A stretch of 45,695 bases of DNA from a virus. Both the position numbers and the translations under genes were made by a program. The stretch is from the IMG/VR virus record IMGVR_UViG_3300045988_144013; one strand, given 5' to 3'. Under the pieces are notes generated by a model, which worked only from the letters and a program-made list of their open reading frames with translations, searched no databases and was not told the origin of the DNA. Positions 13,869-37,178 of the stretch are shown here, in pieces. The stretch's first letter is position 1, and each line of letters begins with the position of its first letter.

Positions 13869-13873
13869 AAAAG

Positions 13874-13912
13874 TTTCCGACATATTACCTGTTTTGATGA
13901 GTTAAAATAGTA
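13874..13912 (+). promoter_or_regulatory. Late-promoter motif, copy A: TTTCCGACA-N16-GAGTTAAAATAGTA
   Basis: Same bipartite motif with identical 16-nt spacing at 37021 and 37112. Confidence 0.6.
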
Positions 13913-14151
13913 TTGTAAGTAAGTGGGCTTACAACAAAGCCCGTGTAGCTCAGACCACGGGTACGGCATAGATGGGGAACACCTATCCACGCTTAAAGGT
14001 GCGTGTGTTGTTTGGGTAATCCGGCAACTGCTCGACCCTGCCGTTGGGGTGATACAGCGGCATATTTAATCTACATAAATAATTTAGCCTTAAAAAGCCG
14101 ATAAAACACGGTAATATATATCAGAATTTAGCATATAGAATAAGAGGTGTG

Positions 14152-14451
14152 ATGATGAACGATATCTGTATGGCAACTCCAACTTGTGATAAAGAAAAAG
14201 GCTCGTTAGAAAAACAAATAGAAACCATTGAACGTCTTACTAGGACATTAAATTTAAGTATTGAGAATACGCAGATGTTTATATTTAGTGATCCTAATAG
14301 TGGTAGTGTTGTCTGTAAGGAAGAACATCTTGCTTCAAACAGCCTAGAGGGAAGGTTAGACGATCTTGCTTCTGAATTAGAAAAAATCGTATCAAAGAGC
14401 AATCTAATTAATGACATTTTAAGAGACAAGTTAGGAACAATGACTCTCTAA
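14152..14451 (+). CDS. Hypothetical protein between the late promoter and terS
   Basis: About 99-aa ORF with RBS AAGAGG. Confidence 0.45.
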   Translation: MMNDICMATPTCDKEKGSLEKQIETIERLTRTLNLSIENTQMFIFSDPNSGSVVCKEEHLASNSLEGRLDDLASELEKIVSKSNLINDILRDKLGTMTL

Positions 14452-14464
14452 TAACTTAATACAC

Positions 14465-14498
14465 AGCACTTAACTTCGGTTAGGTGCTTTTTTATTTG
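14465..14498 (+). terminator. Terminator with UUCG tetraloop, family member 1
   Basis: AGCACTTAAC-TTCG-GTTAGGTGCT followed by TTTTTTATTTG, 19 nt before the terS ATG. Confidence 0.7.
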
Positions 14499-14516
14499 CA
14501 AAGGTGGTGATAACAG

Positions 14517-14900
14517 ATGGCTGCATTAAAAGATCCAAGACAGGAGAAATTTTGTCAGCTTATGGCTGCAGGTGGTAAAACACAGGAGCAGGCAGCCATA
14601 GAAGCAGGATATTCAGAGAGAAGCGCCAGGCAACAGGCAGCAAGACTGTTGACAAATGATAACATTTGCGACAGGATGAACGAACTTCGTGGAATCCAAG
14701 AAGAAGAGGTTGCAGATGAACTTCGCAGACTAAAAGACTTCTGGTTAGATGTTATGGAAGACGAAGAAGAGCGTATGAATGATAGGCTTAAAGCATCTGA
14801 GCTATATGGTAAATCGATAGCAGCATTTGTAGAGAAGCGCGAGGTTAGCGGTAAAGATGGTGAACCAATTACTTTTCGTTGGGCTGGTGATGATGGTTGA
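14517..14900 (+). CDS. terS: Terminase small subunit
   Basis: KDPRQEKFCQLMAAGGKTQEQAAIEAGYSERSARQQAARLL is a Terminase_2-type N-terminus. Confidence 0.9.
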   Translation: MAALKDPRQEKFCQLMAAGGKTQEQAAIEAGYSERSARQQAARLLTNDNICDRMNELRGIQEEEVADELRRLKDFWLDVMEDEEERMNDRLKASELYGKSIAAFVEKREVSGKDGEPITFRWAGDDG

Positions 14901-16228
14901 AAGTAATAACTATACCATACAAGCCAAGGCCTCTTTGGAAAGACATAATTCATCCTGCACTTGATAAATATCGCTTCGCCGTTATAGTAGCTCACAGACG
15001 TTATGGTAAGACTGTAGGAATGATAAATGAGCTGACTAAGAGTGCTATCAAAAATACGCTTATAAGCCCTCAGTTCGCATATGTAGCGCCGTTTAGGAAT
15101 CAGGCTAAGATGATTGCATGGAACTATTTGAAGTATTACACAAGCGCGATTCCTGGCAGAAAGGTAAATGAAAGCGATCTGTTTATAGAACTGCCATCAA
15201 AGCATAAAAATGCTGTTGGGGCAAGGATATATATTATAGGTGCGGATAAGCCTGATGCGTTGCGCGGTACTTACTGGGACGGTGTTGTGCTTGACGAATA
15301 TGCTCAAATAAAGCCTGAACTATGGGGCGAAGTAATACGGCCGGCGTTAGCTGACCGCAAGGGCTTCGCTTATTTTATCGGAACACCTAAAGGGCAGAAT
15401 CAGTTCTATGAGATATACCAAAGAGCGCAACGCAGCGAAGACTGGTTTACCTGCCTTTATAGAGCTGATGAAAGCGGTGTGTTGGATGAAGCAGAGCTTA
15501 AGTCGATGATGGAAGATATGACGGATATAGAAATACGTCAGGAACTTTATTGTGATTTTACTGCATCGGCTAGTAATGTCGTCATCCCTATTGATTTAGT
15601 TACAGAGGCAGCACACAGATTGCTTCAAGAAAAAGACGTGCAGGGAGCTCCAGTTATTCTTGGCGTTGATATAGCCAGATATGGTGATGACAGATCTACT
15701 ATTTTTAAGAGACAGGGACTATGGGTAGATGAACCTTTAGTTTACAAAGGTCTGGACACTATGGATATGGCGGCAAGAGTTATTGATGCGATAATAAGAT
15801 ATAAGGCCGATATGACTTTTATTGACGCCGGAGTCATGGGTGCTGGAGTTATAGATCGCATTAGGCAGTTGGGGTACAACAATATCAGTGAAGTCTACTT
15901 TCAGGGCAATGCACTGCATGAACAGCGTTTTGAAAATATACGTGCTGAGATGTATTTTAAGATGCTTGAATGGCTCAAGTCTGGCGGCGCTATACCTGAT
16001 ATGCCGGAATTAAAAAGCGAACTTAGTATCGTAGAGTACAAGTTTAGTAAACGTGGCAAAATCATCTTACAGCCTAAAGAAGAAATTAAGGAAAAGATTG
16101 GTAAAAGCCCCGATCTTGCAGATGGTCTTGCTCTGACTTTTGCAAGGCCTGTTTATCCAAGGTTAAAACCGGGTGATCCTGGGTATGGCCGGAAGATGAT
16201 GTGTAATACAGAATATTCGATATTTTAA
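14897..16228 (+). CDS. terL: Terminase large subunit
   Basis: 443 aa. Walker A-like HRRYGKT, Walker B VVLDEYA, C-terminal nuclease domain. ATGA overlap with terS. Confidence 0.9.
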   Translation: MKVITIPYKPRPLWKDIIHPALDKYRFAVIVAHRRYGKTVGMINELTKSAIKNTLISPQFAYVAPFRNQAKMIAWNYLKYYTSAIPGRKVNESDLFIELPSKHKNAVGARIYIIGADKPDALRGTYWDGVVLDEYAQIKPELWGEVIRPALADRKGFAYFIGTPKGQNQFYEIYQRAQRSEDWFTCLYRADESGVLDEAELKSMMEDMTDIEIRQELYCDFTASASNVVIPIDLVTEAAHRLLQEKDVQGAPVILGVDIARYGDDRSTIFKRQGLWVDEPLVYKGLDTMDMAARVIDAIIRYKADMTFIDAGVMGAGVIDRIRQLGYNNISEVYFQGNALHEQRFENIRAEMYFKMLEWLKSGGAIPDMPELKSELSIVEYKFSKRGKIILQPKEEIKEKIGKSPDLADGLALTFARPVYPRLKPGDPGYGRKMMCNTEYSIF

Positions 16229-16240
16229 GGAGTGATAGCA

Positions 16241-16456
16241 ATGGGAATTTTCAAGAAAGTATTTGGTGGTGGGAGTATTAGAATGCCTGAGGTTGTTGAA
16301 ACGCCTCCGGCTCCTACGACAGTGACCAGTACGGAGACTGGAACAGAAACAGATCCGGCAAAGAAAAATAAAAGGCGTGGTTTTGCTTCTACGCAAGTGT
16401 CGTCTGATCGCAATACTATTGCAGGCAACGCTACTGGCAGAAAGACTTTAGGTTAG
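16241..16456 (+). CDS. Hypothetical small protein
   Basis: Start reset to MGIFKK, 8 nt after AAGGAG. Confidence 0.45.
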   Translation: MGIFKKVFGGGSIRMPEVVETPPAPTTVTSTETGTETDPAKKNKRRGFASTQVSSDRNTIAGNATGRKTLG

Positions 16457-16466
16457 GGGTATTGAA

Positions 16467-18269
16467 ATGGCTAAAGCTAAATTAAAGCAAAAAGAAATTG
16501 AAACTATAGCAGCACGAGCGCCGGCAGAAACACACCCAGCAGATGGGCCGTCTTTAAAAAGCCACTGGCCAGAGAAAAGAAAACTGATTAGAAAGATGAG
16601 AGATCTTTATGAAAAAAGACTTGATTATGAAATTCGTTGGAAAGCGATTAGAGATTATCAGTTGCCGTTTATAGGCGAATTCGATAATACGGCAGATAAA
16701 ACTAATCCTGCCCGCAGACGTGATCTGGAAATTGCTCAGGGCGTTGCATGGTTGGCCGCACAAGTATTTGCTGCAGGAGTAATGAGCGGTTTAACCCCTC
16801 CTAGTCGTCAGTGGTTCAAATTAGGGTTTAGCAATAGTGCGATGAGTGGTGATATTGAAGCCACGAGAGTGTTGGATATCAGGCAAGAAATAGTATCTGC
16901 GGTGCTTTCAAAGAGTAATTTTTACAATAGCATACATTCGGTGTATCTTGAGTTGCCATTTGGACAATGCCCAATGGCAATTTTTTATGACCCGAGTACG
17001 GGTATTAGATGTGTACCTATGACTATTGGGACTTATGCTCTTGGTGTAGACGGCTTTGGCAAGGTGCAGACATTCGCTCGAAAATATGAAATGTCATTAG
17101 CACAGATAGTTGATTGTTTTGGACAGGAAAGCCTGCCTCAACATTTGCAGCAGCAAGCGACTAATGGTACTGGACTTGATAAAAAGCATACTGTCAATTG
17201 GCTTGTTGAACCAAATGACAAACGCCTGCCAGGATATATGGATAGGTTGAATATGCCTTATAGGTCTGTGTATTGGCTTGATAAATCGCAGGATAATGAA
17301 TTCTTATACGTTGGGGGGTTTGAAGAATGGGCCATACCAGTTGCAAGGTATCTTGTAAACGGGCTTGAACCGTACGCTAAAGGGCCAGGTTGGTTCGCTG
17401 AAGGCGATAGTAAAGCACTTCAGACTATGAAAAAAGATTTGCTTACAGCTATTGAGATTGGGGTTAAACCTCCAATGAAAGGACCGGCTTCGCTGCTGAA
17501 CAACGGTGGTATTAATCTTATTCCTGGCGGGATGACAGCTGTGGATGACCAGTCGCAGCAGTTCGTTCAACCGCTGTTCCAGGTCAATTTAGATATTGAC
17601 CATGCTTCTCAGGAGATCATTCGCACGGAGGACGCAATCAAAAGGCACTATAGTGCAGATTTATTTTTGATGCTTGATAGTGTTGATAACGGGCAAATGA
17701 CGGCACGCGAGGTCATGGAACGCACACAGGAAAAGTTGCAGCAGCTAGGGCCTGTAGTCGAACGGTTACAGGATGAGTTCCTAACGCCGATTATTGTTAG
17801 GATATACAACATCCTCGAAAGGTCTGGAGCATTCCCGCCGATACCACCTGAGATCCAGGAACGTATAAGCGATGAGGATATTAAAATTGAGTATATTTCC
17901 CCGTTGGCGCAAGCGCAGAAAATGAGTGGACTTGTTAATATCGAACAGGCTCTTGCTACTACGCTGCAGATGGCGCAGGCTTGGCCGGAAGTGCTCAAGA
18001 AGGTTGATCCTATAGGAACACTGTCCAAATACTTTGAAATGCTTGGTGCTCCCGCTGCTATGCAACGTAGCGACGATGATGTTAAGAAGCTTATTGAGCA
18101 AGAACAGCAGGCATTACAAGAGCAGCAACAGACGCAGGAAGCAATGGCTCTTATGCAGGCAGCAGCACCGGCAGCACAGGCGGCAAAGAACATGACTGAG
18201 GCTGCAAATGATGGTAACCCAGCTATGGCAGCTTGGTTAGGCATGGGAGGCGGCGCAGGTGAGGTATAA
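16467..18269 (+). CDS. Portal protein (podovirus head-to-tail connector type)
   Basis: 600 aa, directly after terL. Q/A-rich C-terminus. Confidence 0.85.
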   Translation: MAKAKLKQKEIETIAARAPAETHPADGPSLKSHWPEKRKLIRKMRDLYEKRLDYEIRWKAIRDYQLPFIGEFDNTADKTNPARRRDLEIAQGVAWLAAQVFAAGVMSGLTPPSRQWFKLGFSNSAMSGDIEATRVLDIRQEIVSAVLSKSNFYNSIHSVYLELPFGQCPMAIFYDPSTGIRCVPMTIGTYALGVDGFGKVQTFARKYEMSLAQIVDCFGQESLPQHLQQQATNGTGLDKKHTVNWLVEPNDKRLPGYMDRLNMPYRSVYWLDKSQDNEFLYVGGFEEWAIPVARYLVNGLEPYAKGPGWFAEGDSKALQTMKKDLLTAIEIGVKPPMKGPASLLNNGGINLIPGGMTAVDDQSQQFVQPLFQVNLDIDHASQEIIRTEDAIKRHYSADLFLMLDSVDNGQMTAREVMERTQEKLQQLGPVVERLQDEFLTPIIVRIYNILERSGAFPPIPPEIQERISDEDIKIEYISPLAQAQKMSGLVNIEQALATTLQMAQAWPEVLKKVDPIGTLSKYFEMLGAPAAMQRSDDDVKKLIEQEQQALQEQQQTQEAMALMQAAAPAAQAAKNMTEAANDGNPAMAAWLGMGGGAGEV

Positions 18270-18621
18270 GAGTATTACAGATGCGGATAGCCGGCAAGCT
18301 AAATTGCAGGCGTTCTTTCAAAGAGAGCTTCGCAAACGCGATCAGGATGCACTATCAACTATCTTAAATAGCGAAAGCGGACGCTGGTTTTTAATGCGAT
18401 TGCTTGATAAAACAAAAATCAATATAGATAGTTTTACCGGCAATTCACAGACCTTTTATAACGAGGGTATGAGAAAAGTCGGTTTATTAATTCTCGATGA
18501 TATTAAGAGTCTTGGTATTTCTGGAGTAGAGCTCAAACAAAAGGCTGAGCTTGAATATATAAAAACTCAAATCAAAGCGCAGGAAATTGCTGCCGAACAA
18601 TTGGAAGGAGACGATGACTAA
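18259..18621 (+). CDS. Bbp19-like head-module protein (tentative)
   Basis: GRWFLMRLLD...SFTGNSQTFYNEGMRKVGLLIL matches the remembered Bbp19-like pattern. GTG start. Confidence 0.4.
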   Translation: MRYKSITDADSRQAKLQAFFQRELRKRDQDALSTILNSESGRWFLMRLLDKTKINIDSFTGNSQTFYNEGMRKVGLLILDDIKSLGISGVELKQKAELEYIKTQIKAQEIAAEQLEGDDD

Positions 18622-19259
18622 TGGAAGATGTAACTAACACGAGTGCCAACGATAACACGCAGGGCACTGAAGTAGTTGAACAGCAGAAAGAGGTTCAACA
18701 GGAGACACAGTCTGCTGATACCCTTCTTGGTGGTAAAGCAGAAACTCAACCACAGGAAGAAGCTGAACCAATTGCTTATGACTTTAAAGAAACTATTTCC
18801 GCTATGGATGACTTTGAGTTCAGCCAGGAAGAGAGCGATAAGTTCGTAGAGGTCATTAAGGATATGGGGCTTAACAATGAGCAGGCTAACGCTATTGTTA
18901 AGTATGGCGGCGAATGGGGTAAAGGCATCGCAGAAGCTGCTATGAATGCTGTTATAGAGCAGCGAAATACAGAAGTTCAAAATTGGGGTGAGACTGCAAA
19001 GAAAGAACTTGGGACAGAGTTTGACAGTATCATTAGTCTTTGCGGTCTTGCGGTGGAACATGTAGAGAAAGCGGTTCCTGGTATCAGGCAGGCGTTAAAC
19101 GAAACAGGCGCAGGTAACAGAATTGAAGTTATCCGCGCTTTTTCTATGCTCGGAAAGTTTTTGGAGAGTGACCCGGGTAAAGGCGCTGGCGCTCCTGCCG
19201 CACAGGGAAGCAGCCTTGAAAAATTCTATGACAAAACAGATTTTAGTAAATTAAAATAA
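18621..19259 (+). CDS. Scaffolding protein
   Basis: Acidic 212-aa protein between the portal and capsid genes. Confidence 0.65.
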   Translation: MEDVTNTSANDNTQGTEVVEQQKEVQQETQSADTLLGGKAETQPQEEAEPIAYDFKETISAMDDFEFSQEESDKFVEVIKDMGLNNEQANAIVKYGGEWGKGIAEAAMNAVIEQRNTEVQNWGETAKKELGTEFDSIISLCGLAVEHVEKAVPGIRQALNETGAGNRIEVIRAFSMLGKFLESDPGKGAGAPAAQGSSLEKFYDKTDFSKLK

Positions 19260-19276
19260 GAGAGGATGAATGAATA

Positions 19277-20281
19277 ATGGCAGTTTTAAATCAATTGGCA
19301 TATACCTTAGCTGATTGGAGGGGAAGACTTGACCCTTCCGGAAATGTAGATGATATTATTGAGGTATTGTCTCAATCTAATCCAATTTTAGAAGAAATGA
19401 CTTTTATGGAGGGCAATCTTCCTACTGGGATCGTGACTACTCAACGTACAAAAGTTCCTGAACCTTCTATCCGTCGTATCAATACTGGTGTTCCTTATAA
19501 AAAGAGCGGAGTAAAACAGATTAATGATACGACTACTTTATACGAAAATCGTAATAAGATGGATGTAGAGCTTTTGCGTTTGCAGAATGATCCTGCAGCT
19601 TTCCGTTATAGCGAGGATCTAGCATTTGTAGCCGGCTTTGGTGATCGTATTGCTAAAGATGTTATTTATGGCGGACTTAGCGAGGTTCCGGATGAATTTA
19701 ACGGGTTCGATATCAGACATCGTTATTTTGGCAATGGTGATGATCCGACGGCTGAAGGCTATACTACTCTTAATGCTGGCGGCGGTACCAAAAATACATC
19801 TATTTATTTTGTAAATTGGGGAGAACGTACATGCTCAGGCGTGTTCCCTAAAAATGGTAGTGCTGGTTTGAAGAAAGAAGATCTTGGACAACAAACTACA
19901 ATAGCGGATGACGGAACTGAATTTGAAGCTATGATTACGAAATGGACTTGGAATGTAGGCCTGACTATTCGTGATTATAGAGCTGTAGGAGCTATTCGCA
20001 ATATTGATGCAGCACAGTTTGCATCTGCAACTTCTGCTCAAAAGCAGAAGATTATTGAGAATGTTATTCGCGTTCATGACCGGTTGAGAAATCCTGACAG
20101 TGTTATGATGTACTGTTCTCGCAGCATGTATACTCTGTTCAAACTGTGCTTGATCGATAAAAATAACGTTCATGTTGAAATGGAAACGCTGGCCAATGGC
20201 ATTAAAGTATTAAATGTAGATGGTATGCGTGTACGTAAACTTGACTGCATTCGTGAAGACGAAGCTAAAATTGAAGCGTGA
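19277..20281 (+). CDS. Major capsid protein
   Basis: 334 aa, positioned after the scaffold. Strong RBS GAGAGGATGAATGAATAATG. Confidence 0.8.
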   Translation: MAVLNQLAYTLADWRGRLDPSGNVDDIIEVLSQSNPILEEMTFMEGNLPTGIVTTQRTKVPEPSIRRINTGVPYKKSGVKQINDTTTLYENRNKMDVELLRLQNDPAAFRYSEDLAFVAGFGDRIAKDVIYGGLSEVPDEFNGFDIRHRYFGNGDDPTAEGYTTLNAGGGTKNTSIYFVNWGERTCSGVFPKNGSAGLKKEDLGQQTTIADDGTEFEAMITKWTWNVGLTIRDYRAVGAIRNIDAAQFASATSAQKQKIIENVIRVHDRLRNPDSVMMYCSRSMYTLFKLCLIDKNNVHVEMETLANGIKVLNVDGMRVRKLDCIREDEAKIEA

Positions 20282-20294
20282 GGAGTGAAAAATA

Positions 20295-20657
20295 ATGAGA
20301 TTAGATAAGGAAAATATTTTCTTTGAGAAACCTGCTGCAGAATTAGTTGACGGTGTTCTTGGCGATATTATCGCTATGGGCGGCGGAGACAGCATAAATC
20401 CAATGTGGCTTTATGTAGGACCGAAGCTTGAAAGCGGCAGTGTTGTTTTAACCTTGGAAACTGCTGATGATGAAGCGTTCAGCGAGGCTGTAGCGCTGGG
20501 AAGCTTTACTCTGGACGACAATGCTCCTGTACGAGCTAAGGTGCCTTTGGGAGTAAAAGAATACCTGCGCATCAAAGCTAGTGATTCCAGCACTCCAACT
20601 AATGCAACTGCCGATAAAATTGTTGCGGCGCTCGCTGTAGATGTGGATTTTAAATGA
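20295..20657 (+). CDS. Capsid decoration / cement protein (Bbp16-like, tentative)
   Basis: 120 aa, immediately after the capsid gene. Predicted beta-rich. Confidence 0.45.
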   Translation: MRLDKENIFFEKPAAELVDGVLGDIIAMGGGDSINPMWLYVGPKLESGSVVLTLETADDEAFSEAVALGSFTLDDNAPVRAKVPLGVKEYLRIKASDSSTPTNATADKIVAALAVDVDFK

Positions 20658-20815
20658 TTTTAGATAGTAATGGTAATACTGTAATGCCGGGTAGAAAGCT
20701 TGAAGATATGTCGGCCAATGAATTAAGAGCTAAGCTCTATAATGCCGATGTTAAATATCCGGCAAATGCCAGTAGACAAGATTTGATTAGGCTTATTAGA
20801 GAAAATATTAAATAA
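20654..20815 (+). CDS. Small HeH/SAP (Rho-N-like) domain protein (53 aa)
   Basis: MSANELRAKLYNADVKYPANASRQDLIRLIREN. ATGA overlap. Not in the ORF track. Confidence 0.5.
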   Translation: MILDSNGNTVMPGRKLEDMSANELRAKLYNADVKYPANASRQDLIRLIRENIK

Positions 20816-20852
20816 CACCTATGTAGTCATGTGACGGCTATGTACAAGCACT

Positions 20853-20881
20853 TAGGGACGTCTTTAAGGCGTCCCTATTTT
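20853..20881 (+). terminator. Rho-independent terminator after the head module
   Basis: TAGGGACG-N9-CGTCCCTA followed by TTTT. Confidence 0.7.
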
Positions 20882-20913
20882 AATAAAGAGGAAAATAACA
20901 TGGAGGTGTTTCC

Positions 20914-21507
20914 GTGATGAATAATACAGATATTTGCAATATGGCCTTGGCTTATTTAGCTAAAGGCCGCATTTCTTCTATTGATGAGAATAACGAACTT
21001 GCAAGGCAGTGCAAGCTGTTTTATGACCATAGCCGAAAAGGTCTATTGCGTGAATATAGCTGGGGCTTTGCCAAGAGGATTATTAGGCTTGCAGAACTGG
21101 ATGCTTCAAATCCTGATTGGAAGTATGTATATGCATATCCAGAAAAATGTGTGTGTGCAAGACGTATTTTTAATGAGAAAGAGACTGTAAACAGCTTGGA
21201 TAAAGATAAGTATGATTTGTTTTTGATTAGTGATAATACGCAGGCTATAGGATGTGATGTGTACCAAGCATATTTGGAGTACACATATGACGCAGAGGAT
21301 GCAGAGCTTTTCAGTTCTGATTTTGTTGAGGCGTTGGCGAGGATGTTAGCTTTTAATATTTGCTTACAGTTAAATGGCAATGGGACTATCCAGCAGACAC
21401 AATATCAACTGGCACAGGCAGCTCTTAGCAGGGCAAAATATACTACGGCCGCTGAACGTCAGGATAAGTTGGACTACCCTGATAAATACTTTACTGCGAG
21501 GATGTGA
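20914..21507 (+). CDS. Head-tail adaptor / tail tubular A-like protein
   Basis: 197 aa. First gene of the tail block, preceding the nozzle-like gene. Confidence 0.4.
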   Translation: MMNNTDICNMALAYLAKGRISSIDENNELARQCKLFYDHSRKGLLREYSWGFAKRIIRLAELDASNPDWKYVYAYPEKCVCARRIFNEKETVNSLDKDKYDLFLISDNTQAIGCDVYQAYLEYTYDAEDAELFSSDFVEALARMLAFNICLQLNGNGTIQQTQYQLAQAALSRAKYTTAAERQDKLDYPDKYFTARM

Positions 21508-21511
21508 ACTT

Positions 21512-24280: not shown

Positions 24281-24758
24281 AAAGTATAAGGTCGAATTGG
24301 CTGACGTTGATAACGCTATTGGAATTGCTGTAGCGCTGCTGAAAGATTTGAGAGATAGTGATAGGCAGGAGCTGGAAGCATATGAGGAAGACGAAATAAT
24401 GCTTGTTGCCGGTAGTATTGAAAATGCAGATCATTGTTACATTTATAAAGATATGGAAGATAACATTCTTTGTATTGTAGGATTAACTGAAATTCCAGGC
24501 GTTCAGGGTAAAGAGATTTGGATGTTGGCGACAAAAAGGATAAGCAGTTTCAAAAAAGAGCTGCTTATTTGCGTTGCCAGGCTTTTAATTTCAAAATGGG
24601 TAAAAGAATATGGACGGCTTTATAATTATGTTTACAGCGGCAATTCTGCTTCTATACGGTGGCTTGATAGGCTGGGAGCAATGTTCTTAGCTCCTATAAA
24701 AATAAAAAAGAACGGAAAAGAGTTTCTTCCGTTCGTGATTGAGGAGGGGGGTATATAA
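24270..24758 (+). CDS. Internal virion protein A-like (T7 gp13/DUF2833-like, tentative)
   Basis: GKEIWMLAT...YNYVYSGNSASIRWLDRLGAMF. Position after the nozzle gene. Non-ATG start. Confidence 0.35.
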   Translation: MVAKKYKVELADVDNAIGIAVALLKDLRDSDRQELEAYEEDEIMLVAGSIENADHCYIYKDMEDNILCIVGLTEIPGVQGKEIWMLATKRISSFKKELLICVARLLISKWVKEYGRLYNYVYSGNSASIRWLDRLGAMFLAPIKIKKNGKEFLPFVIEEGGI

Positions 24759-25394: not shown

Positions 25395-25396
25395 AC

Positions 25397-25611: not shown

Positions 25612-25656
25612 TCACCCCCCGTAAGGGAAGCCAACACACTGACTATCTCGGACAAC

Positions 25657-25685
25657 ATTATAACATACCTTTAAGCGCTTAACAA
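25657..25685 (-). promoter_or_regulatory. Minus-strand promoter TTGTTA-N17-TATAAT with TG extension
   Basis: Read on the reverse complement. It would start transcription at the right arm of the 13-bp inverted repeat, convergent with the plus-strand promoter. Confidence 0.45.
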
Positions 25686-25704
25686 TTTGTTAAAGCGCTT
25701 TTTC
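25673..25704 (+). terminator. Terminator, family member 2
   Basis: AAGCGCTTAACAA / TTGTTAAAGCGCTT (one bulge) followed by TTTT. The 5' arm AGCGCTTAAC is shared with members 1 and 3. 27 nt before the next ATG. Confidence 0.65.
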
Positions 25705-25730
25705 TATACCTAAAAAGGAGGTCTAAACCT

Positions 25731-27812: not shown

Positions 27813-27839
27813 ACCAATAAATAAATTAGGAGTGGTATT

Positions 27840-30800: not shown

Positions 30801-33800
30801 GTTATGAAGTTTGATATGATTGCTGAAGCTCAGGGCTTTAGCGGTGATGAGCTGGCAAAAAGGCTTATTGCCGAGCCTACGCTTGAACAGGCGATAGAGA
30901 GAGCCCTTGATAATGCGGTACAAGTAAAATTTCCTGATATTTATAAAGAACGCCAATTAGCGGAAGATGCGGCACGAGAAGCCATTTATAATGATGATAG
31001 CGGTCTGTTGATTGGTGTAGAACAACAGCTAATTGAAGATATGGCAGCGAATATCAATAATAAACAGCGTAGTACAGAACAGGCTCTTGCGCTTGCCCGA
31101 GCACGTAAGCAACAGGCTAAATTAGCAGCTAAAGCAGAAATCAGTAAAATGAGTATGAGTAATGCTTTGAAAACGGGCAGGTTTGTTATGGCAGAACGTC
31201 GTGCTGCAGCACAGGCGGCGAAAGCTATAAAAGCTAAGAGTTTTGAAGAAGCGGCAGATTATAAAAGACAGCAGGCTTTTAACCATGCTTTGGTATTGGA
31301 AAGTTTAAAAATGAAGCAGGAAAAAAGCAGAGCTGAAAAATTTTTAAAACGCCAGTTTAAGGCAAAAAAAGAAACGTGGGAAGATGAAAAGCACTTTACA
31401 CAAGCAGCTGCCATTATGGAAAGGATGGGATTAAAACGCAAGGATTATGATCCTGCACTCAGAAAACAATCTTTAATAGAGTATGCAGAAGAAATGCAGG
31501 AACAATATGATAATGTTGCTATTGCCGACTGGCTTATGGATGAAGGGACGTCTTTAGACAATCCTGCCGCAATGACTTTTGAACAACATCAGGATGTTAT
31601 CAATGCTTTGAAAAATATTAAAGCAATCGTTAAACAGGAAAAATATGTAACCTGGTACGGTAAGGAATTGAATTATAAGGAATTCAAGGACGAGGCTATT
31701 AGGAATCTTTTGAAACTAAAAACAAAATGGCAATCTGGTATCAATTCCAAAGAAAAGGCTAAGCCAAGTCAGAGATTTTTTAGAAACCTTACAAATACTG
31801 ATAATTTCTTTGAGCGGATGGATGGCTGGAAATATGGATTTTTCAGTAAACATTTTGGCGAAAGCGGACAAATTGCAGCTAATAAAAAAGCTGCATATAC
31901 AATGGAGTTTGAAGAACGTATTGCTGACGCTACTAAAAAATGGCTGCCGGATAAAAAGGCTGCGGAAGCAGCAGATAAAGAAATTTATTACGAACCATTT
32001 AAGGCCTCATTAACAAAACATAATATTATAAAGATGCTATTGTATTTAGGCTCGGAAAGCAGTTCGTATAAATTGTGTTCAGTTGGGCCTAACAGTACTT
32101 ATGCAACATTTTTCCGAGGCTCTGAGTTGTGGGTTGAAGGTGATCTTGAACAGACGAGAAGCAATTTGCTTGAGGCTTTAGGCAACGTTTTAACAGAAGC
32201 TGATATTCGTTACGCGGAGGAAATTTCCGCTGCTTGTAGCGCTCACTGGAATGAACTTTCGGATATGGTAAAAAGAACGACTGGTTTCTCGCCTGAGAGA
32301 GTTGATGCTATGCCAGCAGAACTTACTTTGCGTAATGGAGCTAAAGTTGTTTTCCGTGGTGGGTACATTCCGTTAGTAAGATATACTGACGGTGGCAGTC
32401 ATCCTGCTACGTCGGATGCCGTTCCGGCAACAAGCGATAAGCGTGCTGTAAACAGTATTAGAACACTGCATACAAATACCGGTGGAACCAAAGCACGTGA
32501 TAGAAGTGTATATCCGTTGGATTTAAGAAAAGGCGCTGAGTACTCTGCAGTTATGGATAATATACATGATCTATGCTATAGAGAACTAGCTACAAGCTAT
32601 CGTAAAATGTTGAATGATCCTGAAATGTATTCTTTGCTGAAAGAAAAATTAGGTATTGCGAATTTTGAAGCGTTTACAGAATACTTAAAGAAAACGGCAC
32701 AGCCTTATGACGGTGGTTACGCTTCAATCAGTGAAAGAGATGCAGGGACTTGTTTGAGCTGGATACGCCAAAAGGCAGTCAATGTAGCAATAATGCTTAA
32801 CTTCAAAACTGCTGTCCAAAACTTGGGAAATCCGTTGTTATATGGTAATGTTGTTGAAGGCTTTGGTTATAAGGACGTAATGGCCGCTTATGGAAATTTG
32901 TTTTTGAATATGCAAAAAGGGCAAGGATGGAAAGCTTCCAAAGAACTTGTTTATTCTAAATCATCTTATATGAAAGAGCGTTCTGTATTGCCGGATATTT
33001 CATTGCGGGATATGAAAGACGAGAGTAGAAAACTGAATCCAGTTGAGCAGGTTACAGTTGAATTTGGTACAAAAGCATTGGTGTTTACCGATAATTTATC
33101 AGCTATTCCTGTTTGGATACAGGCGTATCAAAAGAAAATCAATGTCGGAGTCAGCGAACAGGAAGCCGTGCTATTTGCGGATACTGTTATTAGGCGTACA
33201 CTTGGCAGCAGCCGTATTACAGATGTTGCACCTATTCAGCGTGGCAGCGCACTCATGAAATTATTTACAACATTCCAGGGCTTTTTCAATACGCAGTTCA
33301 ATCAATGGCAAAGAGAAGCTGGAATTTTTGGCCGTGAGTGGAGTGCCGGAAGGAAAGTTGAAGCATCTAAGCGAATAGTTGCTTTTGCAGCGGCTAAGTA
33401 TTTTATGTTTTGCCTGCTGAATTTGGCTTTTGCATTAGAACCGCCTTTTGAAGAAGACGATGATGAATGGACAAAATATGGTAAAGAGCTTTTGCAGTAT
33501 CCTATGAGTTTGCTAGGACCTGTTGGGCAGGTTGCCAATACTCTTGTTAGCAATATGGTCGGAATGCGAACCTATGGCTATAGGATGACTGCAGTACAAG
33601 GTTCTATCGAACAAGCGGAGCGTACAGTAAAGAAAATAAGCAGTGTACAAAAAGGCAATGCTGAACCAGAAGAACTGATTGAGCCTTTAGCTAATCTCGG
33701 TGGTCTTATCGCTGGTGTGCCGGCGCAGTTCAATAAATTGTTTTTTAACGCTTATGATATTGTTGTAAATGATATGGAGCCTCAGTGGGGCGATATCTAC

Positions 33801-33827
33801 AGACGCAGACCAAAAAAAGAACGGTAA
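27840..33827 (+). CDS. Giant polyvalent internal virion / DNA-ejection protein (1995 aa)
   Basis: N-terminal glycine-zipper TM region. Central KHIFDGHSDGMTPELL module (phage MuF/PBECR-like). HETGH zinc-peptidase motif at 30063-30077. Long coiled coils. C-terminal TM segments. Confidence 0.7.
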   Translation: MDAARKQELDNIFNNALKASTNYSIQNAYYGTDSGVDPLSTLGFIDKQTGYDVESKITTALLNGAKSGIKGLLANAGAMVEENIAIHKRQDPNYIPYGGYAPKIAEQFNSLANSEILQRTDVRSSSKLGQFGLDFLEGAGQFVPQIAVTGLTGGIGGGIFMGMSIAGNQYSDLRAQGVDVETAAKASRYNAIIQAPLEQLALGKVLASLPAGSPLKKRLVRLLESAITEGGTEFIQEFPEQLTNIYAQNPNADAKQIATEWDKNWQENIKNAGYSGLIGALLGVGASGAKIAIDSIGENVDAEIHKEKLTQLENNIENVKKSGVNPEYAAGVINTNRPSDFISIDGQKLQQYMQEQGAEKITQALNITEDEVNAAATDGLDVEVPIGDFTAAACKYGDFYKTMQDHISFGDGDYSVNDRKLKKDLRKAYQISENAREELDIEVDKIVENSTNAKMNQEERGALREFLVSQAMIVNPENPAQYFRDHPVEIKRVVSTPKGRYMQTKSANEKLIEDERNFAGIVDEYTAGKINDTKTYNVMTTPLALGLAGGKILPVTIDGSKIKHIFDGHSDGMTPELLKQVPRAMADPMMVLDSYAGRKVVVLDLKDAQGSTIILPLELDVERNRYQVNAVSSAYGKGGENGTDYDWFIEHNLKKGRVSYINKEKTAKWLQSPGSDSASRGNDLDSLLNNSIPDENALRKRREEMQGYYQAEGKTKGAITWDEEGKAIISLFEGSDVTTVFHETGHYFVENLANDVNSGKATEQRQKDWETLLDYAGITNEQWLNMSIDERRPAHEKWAEGFETYVMEGKAPSLALRHVFAKMAKWMKRVYESIRRNENAAPLTDEVRQVFDRMLASEEEINTMSRVDGYFNKLPSVITDNLSESSKIRLENYIAKARDEAVDILTRESLRNFTKERRVAIEDFKDKLRPEIRTEVEKQPLYAAGRMLVDDLQKKQTAKGVADYYLGLIARTLDIESKPLSEVEELDVMKFDMIAEAQGFSGDELAKRLIAEPTLEQAIERALDNAVQVKFPDIYKERQLAEDAAREAIYNDDSGLLIGVEQQLIEDMAANINNKQRSTEQALALARARKQQAKLAAKAEISKMSMSNALKTGRFVMAERRAAAQAAKAIKAKSFEEAADYKRQQAFNHALVLESLKMKQEKSRAEKFLKRQFKAKKETWEDEKHFTQAAAIMERMGLKRKDYDPALRKQSLIEYAEEMQEQYDNVAIADWLMDEGTSLDNPAAMTFEQHQDVINALKNIKAIVKQEKYVTWYGKELNYKEFKDEAIRNLLKLKTKWQSGINSKEKAKPSQRFFRNLTNTDNFFERMDGWKYGFFSKHFGESGQIAANKKAAYTMEFEERIADATKKWLPDKKAAEAADKEIYYEPFKASLTKHNIIKMLLYLGSESSSYKLCSVGPNSTYATFFRGSELWVEGDLEQTRSNLLEALGNVLTEADIRYAEEISAACSAHWNELSDMVKRTTGFSPERVDAMPAELTLRNGAKVVFRGGYIPLVRYTDGGSHPATSDAVPATSDKRAVNSIRTLHTNTGGTKARDRSVYPLDLRKGAEYSAVMDNIHDLCYRELATSYRKMLNDPEMYSLLKEKLGIANFEAFTEYLKKTAQPYDGGYASISERDAGTCLSWIRQKAVNVAIMLNFKTAVQNLGNPLLYGNVVEGFGYKDVMAAYGNLFLNMQKGQGWKASKELVYSKSSYMKERSVLPDISLRDMKDESRKLNPVEQVTVEFGTKALVFTDNLSAIPVWIQAYQKKINVGVSEQEAVLFADTVIRRTLGSSRITDVAPIQRGSALMKLFTTFQGFFNTQFNQWQREAGIFGREWSAGRKVEASKRIVAFAAAKYFMFCLLNLAFALEPPFEEDDDEWTKYGKELLQYPMSLLGPVGQVANTLVSNMVGMRTYGYRMTAVQGSIEQAERTVKKISSVQKGNAEPEELIEPLANLGGLIAGVPAQFNKLFFNAYDIVVNDMEPQWGDIYRRRPKKER

Positions 33828-33836
33828 GAATAAAAA

Positions 33837-33897
33837 AACTGGCAACGATTTCTCAAGGGACGAAATCCCAATGTTGAAAAAGTTGCCAGTTTTTTAT
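33837..33897. terminator. Bidirectional terminator between convergent genes
   Basis: AACTGGCAAC / GTTGCCAGTT, with an A-run before and T6 after. Inner hairpin GATTTC/GAAATC. Confidence 0.65.
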
Positions 33898-33920
33898 TTA
33901 TCATTACAATTTATTTGACA

Positions 33921-34301
33921 TTAGAAGAAAAATTTATGGGAATGACATTGTTCATATATTTTTCTTATTTCCCAATTAGAAATATTATAGCCATGTAGTC
34001 GTTTATTGTGGAAAACCAACATAAATAAAAACCAAAAAAATGGCAAAATGAATCCTAGATAGGCATTATAAGAATAAATACCAGTTATGTATGGTATAAA
34101 ATATATTGTCGCGATAATTAGTCCGAGAGCAACAAATACATTTTCAATTAATTTTATAATTAGCAAATATAAAGTAAAAGCAATTAAAGTAATAATTCCG
34201 CATTGAAGTTTAAGTATTATTGAACCTTCACGACCCATTCCGATTGCAAATATAGAAAGCCATACACATAATCTTCCCATATCGTCATTAAATTTATCCA
34301 T
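33921..34301 (-). CDS. Four-TM membrane protein; candidate superinfection-exclusion protein (SieA position)
   Basis: 126 aa, very hydrophobic, low-GC codons. Own TG-extended -10 (TGATATAAT) and RBS AGGAG. Confidence 0.6.
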   Translation of the reverse strand: MDKFNDDMGRLCVWLSIFAIGMGREGSIILKLQCGIITLIAFTLYLLIIKLIENVFVALGLIIATIYFIPYITGIYSYNAYLGFILPFFWFLFMLVFHNKRLHGYNISNWEIRKIYEQCHSHKFFF

Positions 34302-34370
34302 ACCAATACTCCTAAAATAAGCATATTATTGACTGTTTTTCATAATTATATCACATTTATAAATGAAAAT

Positions 34371-34392
34371 AAAACAGCCCGTAGGCTGTTTT
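34371..34392 (-). terminator. Terminator after the XRE gene
   Basis: AAAACAGCC-CGTA-GGCTGTTTT, symmetric hairpin. Confidence 0.6.
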
Positions 34393-34396
34393 AAAG

Positions 34397-35101
34397 TTAA
34401 GATTTATTAAGGTATTCTTCTATGAATTTATTCAAGTCATTATCTTGATTGTCTACTATTATATATAAATCATCAATAATAGAATGTTTTTTTGAATCTG
34501 TAATGAATTTAAACTGACCTGAAATAAAAGCAAAAAGTCCGATTACGACTTCACTGTCTCTGAAAAATTTGAAAAGCAAATAACCATTCTGTGAAATAGG
34601 ATCAATTGCGGTGAAATATGATTCCTGTTCTAAAAAATCATAATCATTAAATTGAGGGAAAAAGCTCAAAATAAAATCATTTATGATTGGATGTGTTGAA
34701 TTAAAATGTTTGTTTTTATCCAAAGAAACCGGATTTCCATTGTCATCCAAAACCATTATTTCTTCTTTTAAGTCTTCTGGTATCTTTTTTATGAATGGAA
34801 CACTTTCAACTTTAGGGAAGATATCCCAGTGAACCAAAGAATTCTGTGTATCGTATATTAGTTTTTCTACTAATTTATAGACTTTAGAGTCAGACTTTGA
34901 TTGAGTATCTAAAAGCAGATAATCTAAAGTTACATTAAATAATTCTACAAGTTTTTTTAATAATTCTGGATCGCTAGGAATACTTTTTCCCGTTTCGTAG
35001 TAACTAACAATTCTCGAGGATACTCCTAACTTTGTGGCTAAATCTTTTTGGGTCATACCCTTGGCTTCACGGAGTTTCTTTAGATTTTCACTGAAAGACA
35101 T
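34397..35101 (-). CDS. XRE-family HTH regulator with an unknown 165-aa C-terminal domain (Mnt-position repressor)
   Basis: LREAKGMTQKDLATKLGVSSRIVSYYETGK. Start reset to MSFSEN. Divergent from the RHH/antirepressor operon. Low GC. Confidence 0.75.
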   Translation of the reverse strand: MSFSENLKKLREAKGMTQKDLATKLGVSSRIVSYYETGKSIPSDPELLKKLVELFNVTLDYLLLDTQSKSDSKVYKLVEKLIYDTQNSLVHWDIFPKVESVPFIKKIPEDLKEEIMVLDDNGNPVSLDKNKHFNSTHPIINDFILSFFPQFNDYDFLEQESYFTAIDPISQNGYLLFKFFRDSEVVIGLFAFISGQFKFITDSKKHSIIDDLYIIVDNQDNDLNKFIEEYLNKS

Positions 35102-35180
35102 ATTAATCACCACCTAAAGCAATTATAACAATAAGAACCATAAGACACAATATTTTTCTCGAAAAACATCAAGACGTATA

Positions 35181-35209
35181 TTGACATAACTAACGTATTA
35201 CGTTAAAAT
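35181..35209 (+). promoter_or_regulatory. Promoter TTGACA-N17-TAAAAT with an embedded 15-bp perfect palindrome TAACGTATTACGTTA
   Basis: Consensus -35. The palindrome 35191-35205 spans the spacer and -10. 33 nt before the RHH gene. Confidence 0.65.
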
Positions 35210-35241
35210 TAAAAGTAACAAACGAGAAAGGAGTATTAAAG

Positions 35242-35412
35242 ATGAGGCCAACAATTGATTTTAAAGGTGATCTTGGAGCAGTACTTAGATACCACTGTAC
35301 AAAAGTGGGCATTAGTATTGCTGGCTATGTCAAGGGGTTAGTGTATGATGATTTGTTAAAGAAGTATCCTAACTTACTTGATGAAACAAAAAAAGAAACT
35401 ACCATCAAATAG
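35242..35412 (+). CDS. Arc/Mnt-like ribbon-helix-helix protein (56 aa, tentative)
   Basis: N-terminal beta-strand-like TIDFKGDL followed by two helices. RBS AAAGGAG. Not in the ORF track. Confidence 0.45.
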   Translation: MRPTIDFKGDLGAVLRYHCTKVGISIAGYVKGLVYDDLLKKYPNLLDETKKETTIK

Positions 35413-35471
35413 TTCTTGGCGGAACAATGGTAGTTTCATAATGAAAGAATGTTCAAGATAAACATCATTCT
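35388..35471 (-). ncRNA. Candidate antisense small RNA, about 84 nt (sar-like position)
   Basis: Minus-strand promoter TTGAAA-N17-TAAACT (complement of 35478-35506). 11-bp perfect hairpin 35395-35405 / 35427-35437, followed on the minus strand by T7. Confidence 0.4.
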
Positions 35472-35531
35472 TTTAACAGTTTATCATATATTGAACATTC
35501 TTTCAAATTAAAATTGAAAGGATGTATTTTT

Positions 35532-36263
35532 ATGAAAAACGAACTGAAGATTTTTGAAAACGAAGCTTTTGGTAAAGTTAGAATAATTGAAAAAAATAAT
35601 GAGCCGTGGTTTGTAGGCAAAGATGTTGCTGATATTTTGGGGTATAAAAATGGCAGCCGTGATATTAACGTCCATGTTGATGAAGAAGATAGGCTAAAGT
35701 ACCAAATCCGTACCGCAGGTCAAGCGAGAGAGCAGACACTTATTAACGAAAGCGGATTATACTCATTGATTCTATATAGTAAGCTACCTGCCGCAAAGAA
35801 ATTCAAACGCTGGGTAACAAGCGAAATACTTCCTGCGATTCGCAAAACTGGGTCGTATTCTGTAAATCAGGATATAAAAGCTAGAGAAGTAGAAGCTCGC
35901 TTAAATAACAGCCGGGCAAGAGTTGCATCGACATTCCTTAAAGTTGCTCAAATGACTGATCTGCTAGAATATAAGCATATATGTCAGCAGAAAGCAGCAG
36001 AGGTTTTAAGTGGTTTACCGTTACTACCAATGGAAGAAGCTAAAGAAATTACTTATTCAGCAACAGATATAGGGAAAATGCTTGGAGTATCGGCAAATAA
36101 AATAGGTAAGATAGCCAATCAGCATAATCTTAAAACGCCGCAGTATGGAAAGTTATTTTACAGCAAATCGGAACATAGTTGCAAAGAAGTAGAAACATTC
36201 CGTTACTACGAATGCGCCATTCTAAAATTCAGAGAAATTCTGAAAGGTGGTGTGGTGGCATGA
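35532..36263 (+). CDS. BRO-N domain antirepressor
   Basis: LKIFENEAFGKVRII...EPWFVGKDVADILGY...INESGLYSLILYSKLPAAKKFKRWVTSEILPAIRKTGSY. Start reset to MKNELK. Confidence 0.85.
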   Translation: MKNELKIFENEAFGKVRIIEKNNEPWFVGKDVADILGYKNGSRDINVHVDEEDRLKYQIRTAGQAREQTLINESGLYSLILYSKLPAAKKFKRWVTSEILPAIRKTGSYSVNQDIKAREVEARLNNSRARVASTFLKVAQMTDLLEYKHICQQKAAEVLSGLPLLPMEEAKEITYSATDIGKMLGVSANKIGKIANQHNLKTPQYGKLFYSKSEHSCKEVETFRYYECAILKFREILKGGVVA

Positions 36264-36472
36264 ACTTGACAGATGCTATTAAATTAGCTGGATATCAGGA
36301 AGTGCCATTCTACAATCAAGAAGTTATAAAAGGGTTAAATGATATAGTGGAGTGTGAAAAACGGAAAAGCAGCTATAACGATTTACCTTTTGCGGCGTGT
36401 TTGAGTGGTTACTTGTATGGAGTTACGCAAGGCGTTCGTAAAGAACGGCAAAGAAGAAAAAATGCCCGGTAA
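36260..36472 (+). CDS. Hypothetical protein (70 aa)
   Basis: ATGA overlap with the antirepressor stop. Start reset to MNLTDAIK. Confidence 0.5.
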   Translation: MNLTDAIKLAGYQEVPFYNQEVIKGLNDIVECEKRKSSYNDLPFAACLSGYLYGVTQGVRKERQRRKNAR

Positions 36473-36499
36473 AGGGATTGAAATAGTTTTTGAATAATG

Positions 36500-36566
36500 A
36501 AAAAAAGAAACACCCGCTTTCCGTGGAAAGATGCGCGAGTGTTTCTTGTGACCAGCCGAAGCTGAT
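36500..36566 (-). ncRNA. Candidate antisense small RNA, about 67 nt
   Basis: Minus-strand promoter TTGATA-N17-TATACT (complement of 36573-36601). Hairpin AGAAACAC / GTGTTTCT (36506-36546), followed on the minus strand by T6-7. Confidence 0.35.
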
Positions 36567-36613
36567 AACAATAGTATAGCAGTTTTCGGCTGGTATATCA
36601 AGGAGGATATACC

Positions 36614-36823
36614 ATGAACGGAAACAGGTCGTCGTGTCCTGACGAAGAAAAAAGGGCATTGGAGAAATTTGTCGAAGTTGTAAGAAGCACATCTCAAGAA
36701 GAATTTGCAAGAAAATATATAAATGAAGATAGTGATAAAATGACAGAGACAAAAAGCGAGATCTCCACCGCTGATAGAAAAGAAGTAAAAGAACAAATCA
36801 AAGGCGGTGTAAATAATGAATAA
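36614..36823 (+). CDS. Hypothetical protein
   Basis: 69-aa ORF. The RBS AAGGAG sits in the loop of an 8-bp hairpin. Confidence 0.45.
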   Translation: MNGNRSSCPDEEKRALEKFVEVVRSTSQEEFARKYINEDSDKMTETKSEISTADRKEVKEQIKGGVNNE

Positions 36824-37016
36824 AGTGCGGAAATCATTTAGGGAGCTGTTGAACAAATTGTCTCCGGCGCAGCTTGAAGAAGTAGCAGCCATAGCATATG
36901 AGATAAAGAAAGAACGTGAATCGTCGTCGAAGGTAGTTCGGTTTATGGATAAGTCCAGCCAGCGTTGTTATGATCAGGGGTATAAGCTTGGTCTGATGTT
37001 AGGAAATAAATTTTAA
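36816..37016 (+). CDS. Hypothetical protein
   Basis: 66-aa ORF overlapping the upstream stop. Confidence 0.45.
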   Translation: MNKVRKSFRELLNKLSPAQLEEVAAIAYEIKKERESSSKVVRFMDKSSQRCYDQGYKLGLMLGNKF

Positions 37017-37020
37017 AAAG

Positions 37021-37059
37021 TTTCCGACAAAATGCCATTTAACAAGAGTTAAAATAGTA
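37021..37059 (+). promoter_or_regulatory. Late-promoter motif, copy B
   Basis: TTTCCGACA-N16-GAGTTAAAATAGTA, both boxes identical to copy A. Confidence 0.6.
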
Positions 37060-37111
37060 ATGTAAGGTTATTGGATATGAGAGCAGAGGCGGTGTTAAAA
37101 AATTAAAAATG

Positions 37112-37150
37112 TATCCGACAAAACCACTATAAAAATGAGTTAAAATAGTA
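37112..37150 (+). promoter_or_regulatory. Late-promoter motif, copy C
   Basis: TATCCGACA-N16-GAGTTAAAATAGTA, 91 bp downstream of copy B. Confidence 0.6.
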
Positions 37151-37178
37151 TCATAAAGTTAGTTAGAACTTAATAGAA

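Follow-up and report, generated by a model that had tools for sequence, protein, structure and literature searches.

Predicted late promoters with a displaced -35-like box in a prophage of Phascolarctobacterium faecium and their probable dependence on a distant member of the RinA/Ltr superfamily

Introduction

From which promoters, and with the help of which protein, are the late genes of a Phascolarctobacterium prophage transcribed? The question is raised by IMG/VR record IMGVR_UViG_3300045988_144013, a 45,695-nt stretch of DNA analysed here over its full length (the window; all coordinates refer to it). From its sequence, we take the window to be a temperate prophage of Phascolarctobacterium faecium, of podovirus-like type. 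A bipartite motif, consisting of TCCGACA (box 1), 16 nt, and the 14-mer GAGTTAAAATAGTA (box 2), occurs upstream of its late genes. An earlier sequence-only reading had interpreted this motif as a late promoter recognised through a phage-encoded factor, either the product of the gene at 13425-13868 (P0001), described as RinA-like, or a protein resembling sigma region 4 encoded at 42848-43090 (P0002). The analysis reported here leads us to consider it likely that the three motifs of the window are factor-dependent late promoters for the packaging, tail-fibre, and lysis genes, and that they are read with the help of P0001.

The late regulators found in phages of Gram-positive bacteria form the Ltr superfamily, which includes RinA of phi11 and 80alpha, ArpU, LtrA, LtrB/DUF1492, and LtrC (PMC3152322, PMC3753634, PMC13123087). 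The published targets of Ltr proteins are arrays of three to four direct repeats (PMC13123087, PMC3753634). In many temperate phages, the production of virions and transduction are under the control of regulators of the RinA/Ltr kind, whose mechanism is unsolved. No literature on the late promoters of Phascolarctobacterium phages was found.

Results

Three copies of a bipartite motif precede late gene blocks

Scanning the window for TCCGACA-N16-GAGTTAAAATAGTA detected exactly three sites, all on the + strand (copies A, B, and C; Table 1). The exact 14-mer occurs three times, with no occurrence added at up to two mismatches, and the complete 37-nt pattern, searched with up to three mismatches, returned the same three sites for 0.00 expected in 100 shuffles. 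TCCGACA alone is present five times and ACA-N20-TAWAAT seven times, the two being combined at the three sites only. Each copy has a 16-nt spacer, a distance of 20 nt between CCGACA and TAAAAT, and an A-rich run on its upstream side. The sequence-only reading was thus accurate on the number and places of the copies, on the identity of the 14-mer, and on the geometry. It had also placed copy A 6 bp after the stop codon of the RinA-like gene, which holds for a motif taken to begin at position 13874; box 1 itself begins 7 nt past the TAA codon (13866-13868). Copies B and C stand in tandem, 91 bp apart, in front of the tail-fibre gene, again as that reading had it. Scans with mismatches and with partial patterns found no weaker copies before the late blocks at 20914 and 25731. 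Besides the motif itself, no direct repeats were found near copy A, each promoter having a single TCCGACA box.

Box 2 includes a -10-like hexamer, TAAAAT (13903-13908 in copy A), which matches the -10 consensus at five of six positions, and the GACA of box 1 matches the -35 core. The sequence-only reading of the motif mentioned neither this -10 match nor the terminators described below. These likenesses, together with A-runs that can serve as UP elements, would suit self-sufficient promoters of the host sigma-A holoenzyme that are used without a phage activator, as would the presence just upstream of copy A of a sigma-A-like TTGGCA-16-TAAAAT accompanied by TG. A spacing of 20 nt between the boxes is outside the working range of sigma-A and sigma-70 promoters, and such sites should be weak for the holoenzyme alone. 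In addition, the late sites read GAG where relatives read GTG, so that the TG extension of the -10 box is missing, and the upstream promoter-like site is found at copy A only. For the latter reason, the TTGGCA-16-TAAAAT site (13839-13866) was also rejected as the actual promoter, with the motif as its leader and TAAAAT as a pause-like -10 box: copies B and C have no equivalent of it. A role of the motifs as other activator-independent sites, such as operators or packaging sites, fits poorly, since all copies are in the same orientation before late gene blocks. We regard self-sufficient host promoters or such other sites as very unlikely, and two further results described below bear on them.

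Both boxes and their distance are conserved, and the motif is confined to the phage

The sequence-only reading had suggested a scan of related phages for the motif. More than 100 IMG/VR contigs contained exact matches; these contigs, together with relatives whose regulators are 65-72% identical to P0001, provided a set of 211 instances (39 distinct). Variable positions numbered 0 of 21 in box 1, 2 of 42 in box 2, 11 of 48 in the spacer, and 16 of 39 in the upstream flank. The length of the spacer is constant across the 211 instances while its sequence drifts, and the conservation of box 2 reaches 4 nt on either side of TAAAAT. These results indicate that both boxes and the distance between them are what is kept, and that the motif is under selection.

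The same prophage is present in P. faecium DSM 14760, whose 2.3-Mb genome contains CCGACA-N16-GNGTTAAAAT three times, in all cases on the forward strand and within the prophage; the reversed control pattern had no match in this genome. Since the motif is confined to the prophage, it is phage-specific and does not represent a class of host promoters. Its absence from the remainder of the host genome is the first of the two results that argue against self-sufficient sigma-A promoters.

Where 520 nt or more of upstream sequence was available, the type-A instances, 118 of 118, come directly after a gene of the P0001 family, a count that is partly circular as about half of the loci were fetched by the motif alone and the rest by similarity to P0001. 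This linkage strongly favours P0001 over P0002 as the factor.

P0001 is a distant homologue of RinA with a sigma-region-4-like C-terminal half

The gene encoding P0001 closes a + strand early block that runs from position 2070 or thereabouts, and is followed by terS. The same order, regulator gene then terS, was found in three relatives (L160, L161, and L164). The closest named relatives of P0001 come from Phascolarctobacterium, and DSM 14760 encodes a copy that is 99% identical. For P0018 and P0019, which are 48-51% identical to P0001, no locus was recovered from viral contigs.

Used as a single query, P0001 had no match in Pfam, PHROG, or NCBIfam, and none to TIGR01636, TIGR01637, or PF07374 even at E values up to 10; a sequence search of the PDB gave a best E value of 0.034, to a helix-turn-helix only. 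An exhaustive phmmer search assembled a family of 127 cluster representatives. In an alignment of 73 of its sequences, four members directly matched TIGR01636 (RinA; best E value 2e-6), four matched DUF1492, and members also matched PHROG 36 and 248 (regulator/activator). The profile of these 73 sequences was then compared with a RinA reference profile built from 17 proteins that pass the TIGR01636 cut-off and come from genomes of the same phylum. The two profiles aligned over 132 columns (hhalign probability 99.5%, E value 2.8e-23) and have an S-D-P-T motif in common. We conclude, from these sequence profiles, that the P0001 family and RinA are homologous along the entire protein. The label RinA-like therefore holds at the level of profiles and superfamilies, although single-sequence searches find nothing.

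The AlphaFold (AF2) model of P0001 (predicted local distance difference test, 90.9; predicted template modelling score, 0.82) begins at the N-terminus with two helices, followed by a conserved loop rich in glycine, a third helix, a beta-hairpin, and finally four helices. The N-terminal domain is specific to the family and has a conserved GGGGHAFISNPTE loop. In a structural comparison, the last four helices (78-142) matched the -35-binding domain of Mycobacterium tuberculosis SigL (3hug_K) with a probability of 0.99, a template modelling score of 0.79, and a root-mean-square deviation of 2.2 A.

This resemblance raises the question of whether P0001 could be a minimal sigma factor that acts alone, with a C-terminal domain that reads TCCGACA and an N-terminal domain that reads GAGTTAAAAT across the 16 nt, without sigma-A. 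A 16-nt spacer between conserved boxes is the usual geometry of promoters of the extracytoplasmic function (ECF) type, and the conservation of box 2 beyond TAAAAT on both sides would agree with such a factor. The best full-length fold matches of P0001 in the PDB are all ECF sigma factors, and one family member matches Sigma70_r4 and one an ECF superfamily model. However, these full-length matches are weak (E values above 0.2, root-mean-square deviations of 14-27 A), the sigma-4 part alone being superposed. In profile comparisons with sigma-A and group-3 sigma factors, only region 4 was aligned (columns 87-132; 45 columns, 29% probability), nothing aligned in residues 1-82, and Pfam Sigma70_r2 had no match in P0001 or in any of the 73 family members. 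In the model, P0001 forms a single compact body, without a linker between sigma-2 and sigma-4 domains. Furthermore, the authors of the RinA study judged a role as sigma factor quite unlikely (PMC3152322). Because the ECF matches are weak and the profile aligns region 4 alone, P0001 is not classified here as a sigma factor, and we find it improbable that it acts as one.

The spacing recurs in two distant phages, with different upstream boxes

A member of the P0001 family was present in 32 of 301 sampled genomes of the host's class. Downstream of most family members there is a -10 box of the sigma-A type, often TRTGnTATAAT; this host-type element in the relatives is a further point against a minimal sigma factor that would dispense with sigma-A. 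A phage of genome G052, whose regulator is 31% identical to P0001, has three copies of TGTATAGGACA-N20-TAWAAT, located before terS, before the gene for a 701-residue virion protein, and before a tail-fibre gene. A phage of genome G061 (regulator 35% identical) has two copies of TTTTGTACTTTACA-N20-TAAAAT, before terS and before a gene for a tail fibre or spike. The motif copies of these two phages are preceded by A-runs and, within each phage, differ from one another in spacer sequence. Their common scheme is xxxACA, 20 nt, TAWAAT, with upstream boxes that differ from that of the window. Box 1 thus varies with the lineage while the distance and the type of the -10 box are constant, which fits a regulator-specific box 1 combined with a -10 box read by the host. 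The change of box 1 with the regulator is the second result that argues against self-sufficient sigma-A promoters. A universal 20-nt geometry across the P0001 family was considered and rejected, since the other members have spacings of 17-22 nt or no clear box. Together, the conserved boxes with a free spacer, the A-rich run with its -35-like and -10-like boxes, the placement of the copies directly before terS and the tail-fibre/lysis block, and the recurrence of the 20-nt geometry before the same classes of gene in two distant phages support the reading of the motifs as promoters.

P0002 would be made late and was not found in a phage with the same promoter geometry

P0002, the second factor proposed by the sequence-only reading, is a protein of 80 residues with a clear Sigma70_r4_2 domain, and the LtrA family of late regulators likewise consists of region-4-only proteins (PMC3753634). 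It is kept in all five close phage records tested, at 90-91% identity, and in the G061 phage, at 49% identity and in a syntenic position. The gene begins 4 nt after that of a membrane/coiled-coil protein (42391-42843). As the tightly coupled last gene of the lysis block, which ends in a terminator, it should be expressed from the late transcript of copies B and C. P0002 would consequently be made only once late transcription is under way. It adjoins no motif copy. Searches of the G052, G295, and G142 genomes did not recover it, even though three promoters with this geometry are present in G052. P0002 is therefore disfavoured as the reader of the motif, a role that we consider extremely unlikely.

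An intrinsic terminator lies downstream of each copy

Each copy of the motif would fire into an intrinsic terminator located ahead of the first gene, T1 for copy A and T2 for copies B and C. The two terminators are paralogous modules (14456-14516 and 37167-37225) made up of AACTTAATA, a stem, a CTTCGG loop, the second half of the stem, TTTTTTATTTG, and a purine-rich ribosome binding site; their flanks are common, and their stems differ by a compensatory change (a-t to g-c). In relatives, the T1 module is near-invariant and the first gene joined behind it changes. In the G052 and G061 phages, five of five copies show the order promoter, terminator, ribosome binding site, and start codon. More generally, a + strand terminator was detected within 600 nt after the regulator gene at 21 of 26 family loci; a coding control had one at 3 of 26, and the opposite strand at 9. 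A -10 box precedes the terminator at about 13 of these 26 loci, and the terminator lies right at the stop codon of the regulator gene at 5.

The leader between copy A and T1 is a cargo slot. In the window it contains an open reading frame for 100 residues, which relatives lack at this spot, and a hairpin (TGCCGTTGGGGTGATACAGCGGCA) that was recovered in L160, L161, and L164 despite swapped or replaced flanking leader sequence. L164, whose regulator is 67% identical to P0001, carries two tRNA-Ser genes (anticodons TGA and GCT) at 10584-10767, between its late promoter and its leader terminator. This slot corresponds to positions 14063-14100, approximately, of the window's leader, and small open reading frames occupy it in other relatives. 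The stem-loop TTGTAAG-N8-CTTACAA, at which the late transcript is predicted to begin, is retained in the relatives at 65-72% identity and in the G295 phage (locus L170, regulator 31% identical; CGTAAGctttagggCTTAC), and may be a stabiliser of the 5' end. No Rfam family was found in the leader at the gathering threshold or at E values up to 1, and the z-score of its fold was only -0.9.

A terminator after each promoter hints at antitermination, without showing it. In such a scheme, the regulator would load onto RNA polymerase at the TCCGACA promoters and render it terminator-resistant, like lambda Q at PR'-tR', so that only polymerases started at such a promoter would express the late genes. 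The scheme can coexist with factor-dependent initiation, and we regard it as a serious possibility, though less likely than not. It would account for the terminators that stand between every copy and its first gene, for the compensatory change by which T1 and T2 differ, and for the near-invariance of T1 in front of changing genes. Only 18 and 15 nt separate T1 and T2 from the start codons, which leaves no room for a further promoter; leaky terminators would nevertheless suffice, and a promoter overlapping the terminator is also possible. The constant order in the two distant phages and the frequency of terminators at family loci point in the same direction, with the reservation that a terminator at the stop codon of the regulator gene, as at 5 of the 26 loci, is in its ordinary place. 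Moreover, a transcript initiated at copy A would have to pass another strong terminator inside the late block (20853-20887). On the other hand, scans of P0001 and its family in Pfam, PHROG, and NCBIfam revealed no Q family or other antiterminator, no Q protein was present with meaningful probability among the fold matches of P0001, and inspection by eye identified no TAnnnT-type, -10-like pause match common to the three copies between +1 and +25.

The published data on 80alpha bear on both sides of this question. RinA binding depends on sequences that lie over 155 bp ahead of the mapped 5' end of terS; a terminator stands between rinA and terS, and the authors, who leave the distance unexplained, take it to imply a more complex mechanism (PMC3152322). 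In the rinA-terS intergenic region (L281, 1422-1607), we observed in succession two TGGCAGT repeats, TAAAAT/TATTAT boxes, a terminator (1536-1569), the published +1 (1584), and terS. Thus, the region bound by RinA and a -10-like box precede the terminator, but the published primary 5' end falls after it (PMC3152322). None of the RinA papers found in a literature search mentions antitermination. That RinA-superfamily activators would in general be promoter-loaded antiterminators, which carry polymerase through terminators gating the late blocks, is a tentative extension that we would not expect to hold. If true, promoter-loaded antitermination would recast the main late-gene switch in the temperate phages that infect Firmicutes and Negativicutes, and would explain why the RinA-binding region lies before the terminator and so far from the mapped terS 5' end.

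An inserted island separates the two late blocks

The window is organised, from an integrase at the left end, into a long + strand early block, terS, terL, a virion module, tail-fibre genes, and a lysis block. The virion module is podovirus-like, with a Head-tail_con portal, a nozzle protein, and an ejection protein of 1995 residues. An immunity-like island, partly on the opposite strand, splits the late genes, and the tail-fibre block consequently needs late promoters of its own. Within the island, a near-consensus TTGACA-17-TAAAAT promoter (35181-35209) lies ahead of a gene for a Bro-N domain protein (35514-36263). Since the same phage has a canonical promoter with 17-nt spacing, we conclude that the host machinery is ordinary and that a spacing of 20 nt is peculiar to the late sites. 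No tRNA gene was detected in the window, and a blastn search with positions 13000-16500 against 50,697 phage records found no DNA similarity to known phages.

Table 1. Positions of the motif copies, genes, and RNA elements discussed in the text.
Feature	Position	Strand	Details
Predicted late regulator P0001, distant RinA/Ltr-superfamily member	13425..13868	+	147 residues; profile comparison and fold
A-rich run ATAAAATAAAAAAGTT, UP-element-like	13860..13875	+	Upstream of copy A, overlaps regulator stop codon; from sequence
Predicted late promoter, copy A	13876..13912	+	Box 1 TCCGACA 13876-13882; 16-nt spacer; box 2 GAGTTAAAATAGTA 13899-13912
Stem-loop at predicted late-transcript 5' end	13913..13934	+	From fold
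Leader hairpin TGCCGTTGGGGTGATACAGCGGCA	14039..14062	+	Weak T-tail; conserved
100-residue open reading frame, leader cargo	14149..14451	+	Between copy A and T1
Intrinsic terminator T1	14465..14498	+	10-bp stem, UUCG loop, U6AUUU tail; ends 18 nt before terS ATG
terS, small terminase	14517..14900	+	Opens packaging/head block; Pfam Terminase_2 4e-12, PHROG 51
Strong internal terminator	20853..20887	+	11-bp stem, 6 GC pairs; after capsid-region genes, before open reading frame 20914
Predicted late promoter, copy B	37023..37059	+	7 nt after stop of 66-residue open reading frame 36816-37016
Predicted late promoter, copy C	37114..37150	+	91 bp after copy B
Intrinsic terminator T2, T1 paralogue	37176..37210	+	About 25 nt past copy C, 15 nt before tail-fibre start
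Tail-fibre gene	37226..38374	+	Opens tail-fibre/lysis block; PHROG 1640, 36601; likely TTG start 37226 after GGAGGG
Amidase_2 endolysin	41392-41940		Pfam domain
P0002, sigma-region-4-only protein	42848..43090	+	80 residues; Pfam Sigma70_r4_2 2.8e-8; last gene of late lysis block
Strong terminator	43076-43106		13-bp stem; after P0002 gene

Discussion

The predicted late promoter set described here is a variant of the RinA/Ltr kind that departs from the published cases by its lone -35-like box, displaced and at constant spacing. In the mechanism that we propose, each promoter would consist of an A-rich, UP-like run, the -35-like TCCGACA, a spacer of free sequence and fixed length, and a box whose TAAAAT core matches the -10 element of the host sigma-A. 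Copy A would head the block of packaging, head, and ejection-protein genes. The tandem copies B and C would restart late transcription beyond the inserted island for the tail-fibre and lysis genes. The most likely role of P0001 is to bind TCCGACA and to recruit or reposition RNA polymerase, sigma-A region 2 presumably reading TAAAAT. The sigma-A holoenzyme alone would be expected to use the sites poorly, because the boxes are separated by 20 rather than 17 nt and the TG extension is missing; a sigma-4-like protein positioned at the displaced box may be the simplest way to make such a site work. The comparisons establish that the motif is real, that its boxes are under selection, that it is restricted to the phage and linked to the regulator family, and what the homology and fold of P0001 are. 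From the sequence, we infer the binding, the dependence on the factor, and transcription starts near 13915, 37062, and 37153.

Several observations weigh against this mechanism. P0001 by itself escapes every curated family model. The linkage of the motif to the regulator gene was counted on loci collected in part through that very gene. The targets described for Ltr proteins are arrays of direct repeats, in contrast to the single box per promoter reported here. Members of the P0001 family other than those of the window's close relatives and of the G052 and G061 phages have spacings of 17-22 nt or no clear box, so that the 20-nt geometry is not universal. Finally, the terminators between the promoters and the first genes are unexplained by a simple activation of initiation.

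The phage group offers an unusually clean target for the study of RinA/Ltr-type activation, with a short box always 20 nt away from a host-type -10 element and two to three copies per genome. Natural variants of the box with their cognate regulators, and hundreds of metagenomic copies, make box-swap and spacer tests straightforward. Copy C and T2, which span about 100 bp, form a compact promoter-terminator cassette for the question of read-through. The analysis also extends the family to prophages of human-gut Negativicutes that were missed by curated models.

Comparison with known systems places the window closest to the Ltr superfamily by gene order and protein architecture. As in that superfamily, a protein of about 140-150 residues with a sigma-region-4-like C-terminal half is encoded by the last early gene before terS, the specificity determinants lie right after the regulator gene, a terminator separates the latter from terS, and the homology is detected at the profile level. 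The window differs from that superfamily in its Negativicute host and its podovirus-like virion module. Its regulator is missed by the RinA, ArpU, and DUF1492 models and has an inserted beta-hairpin; the presumed target is one -35-like box, 20 nt from the -10 element in every copy, in place of three to four direct repeats; and there are three promoters per genome instead of one mapped late promoter.

The succession of regulator gene, promoter with regulator site, short leader, terminator, and late genes, including the presence of cargo in the leader, is that of the lambdoid Q/PR'/tR' system. Unlike lambdoid Q, P0001 resembles no Q family in sequence or in fold; unlike PR', the promoters do not appear constitutive, owing to their 20-nt spacing, and show by eye no promoter-proximal, -10-like pause element. 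There are also several promoter-terminator units rather than one. The middle promoters of T4, which have a MotA box at -30 and rely on the remodelling of sigma region 4 by AsiA, provide another parallel, in that the -10 element is of the host type (sigma-70 in T4) and the -35 element gives way to a box that is specific to the phage, lies at an unusual distance, and is read by a phage protein. No MotA or AsiA homologue is involved here, the box resembles a displaced -35 element (GACA), and the reader itself is sigma-4-like. ECF sigma factors and phage sigma factors such as SPO1 gp28 and T4 gp55 likewise combine two boxes, a 16-nt spacer, and a sigma-4-like domain for the upstream box; P0001 differs from them in that region 2 is undetectable by profile comparison and the model has no inter-domain linker.

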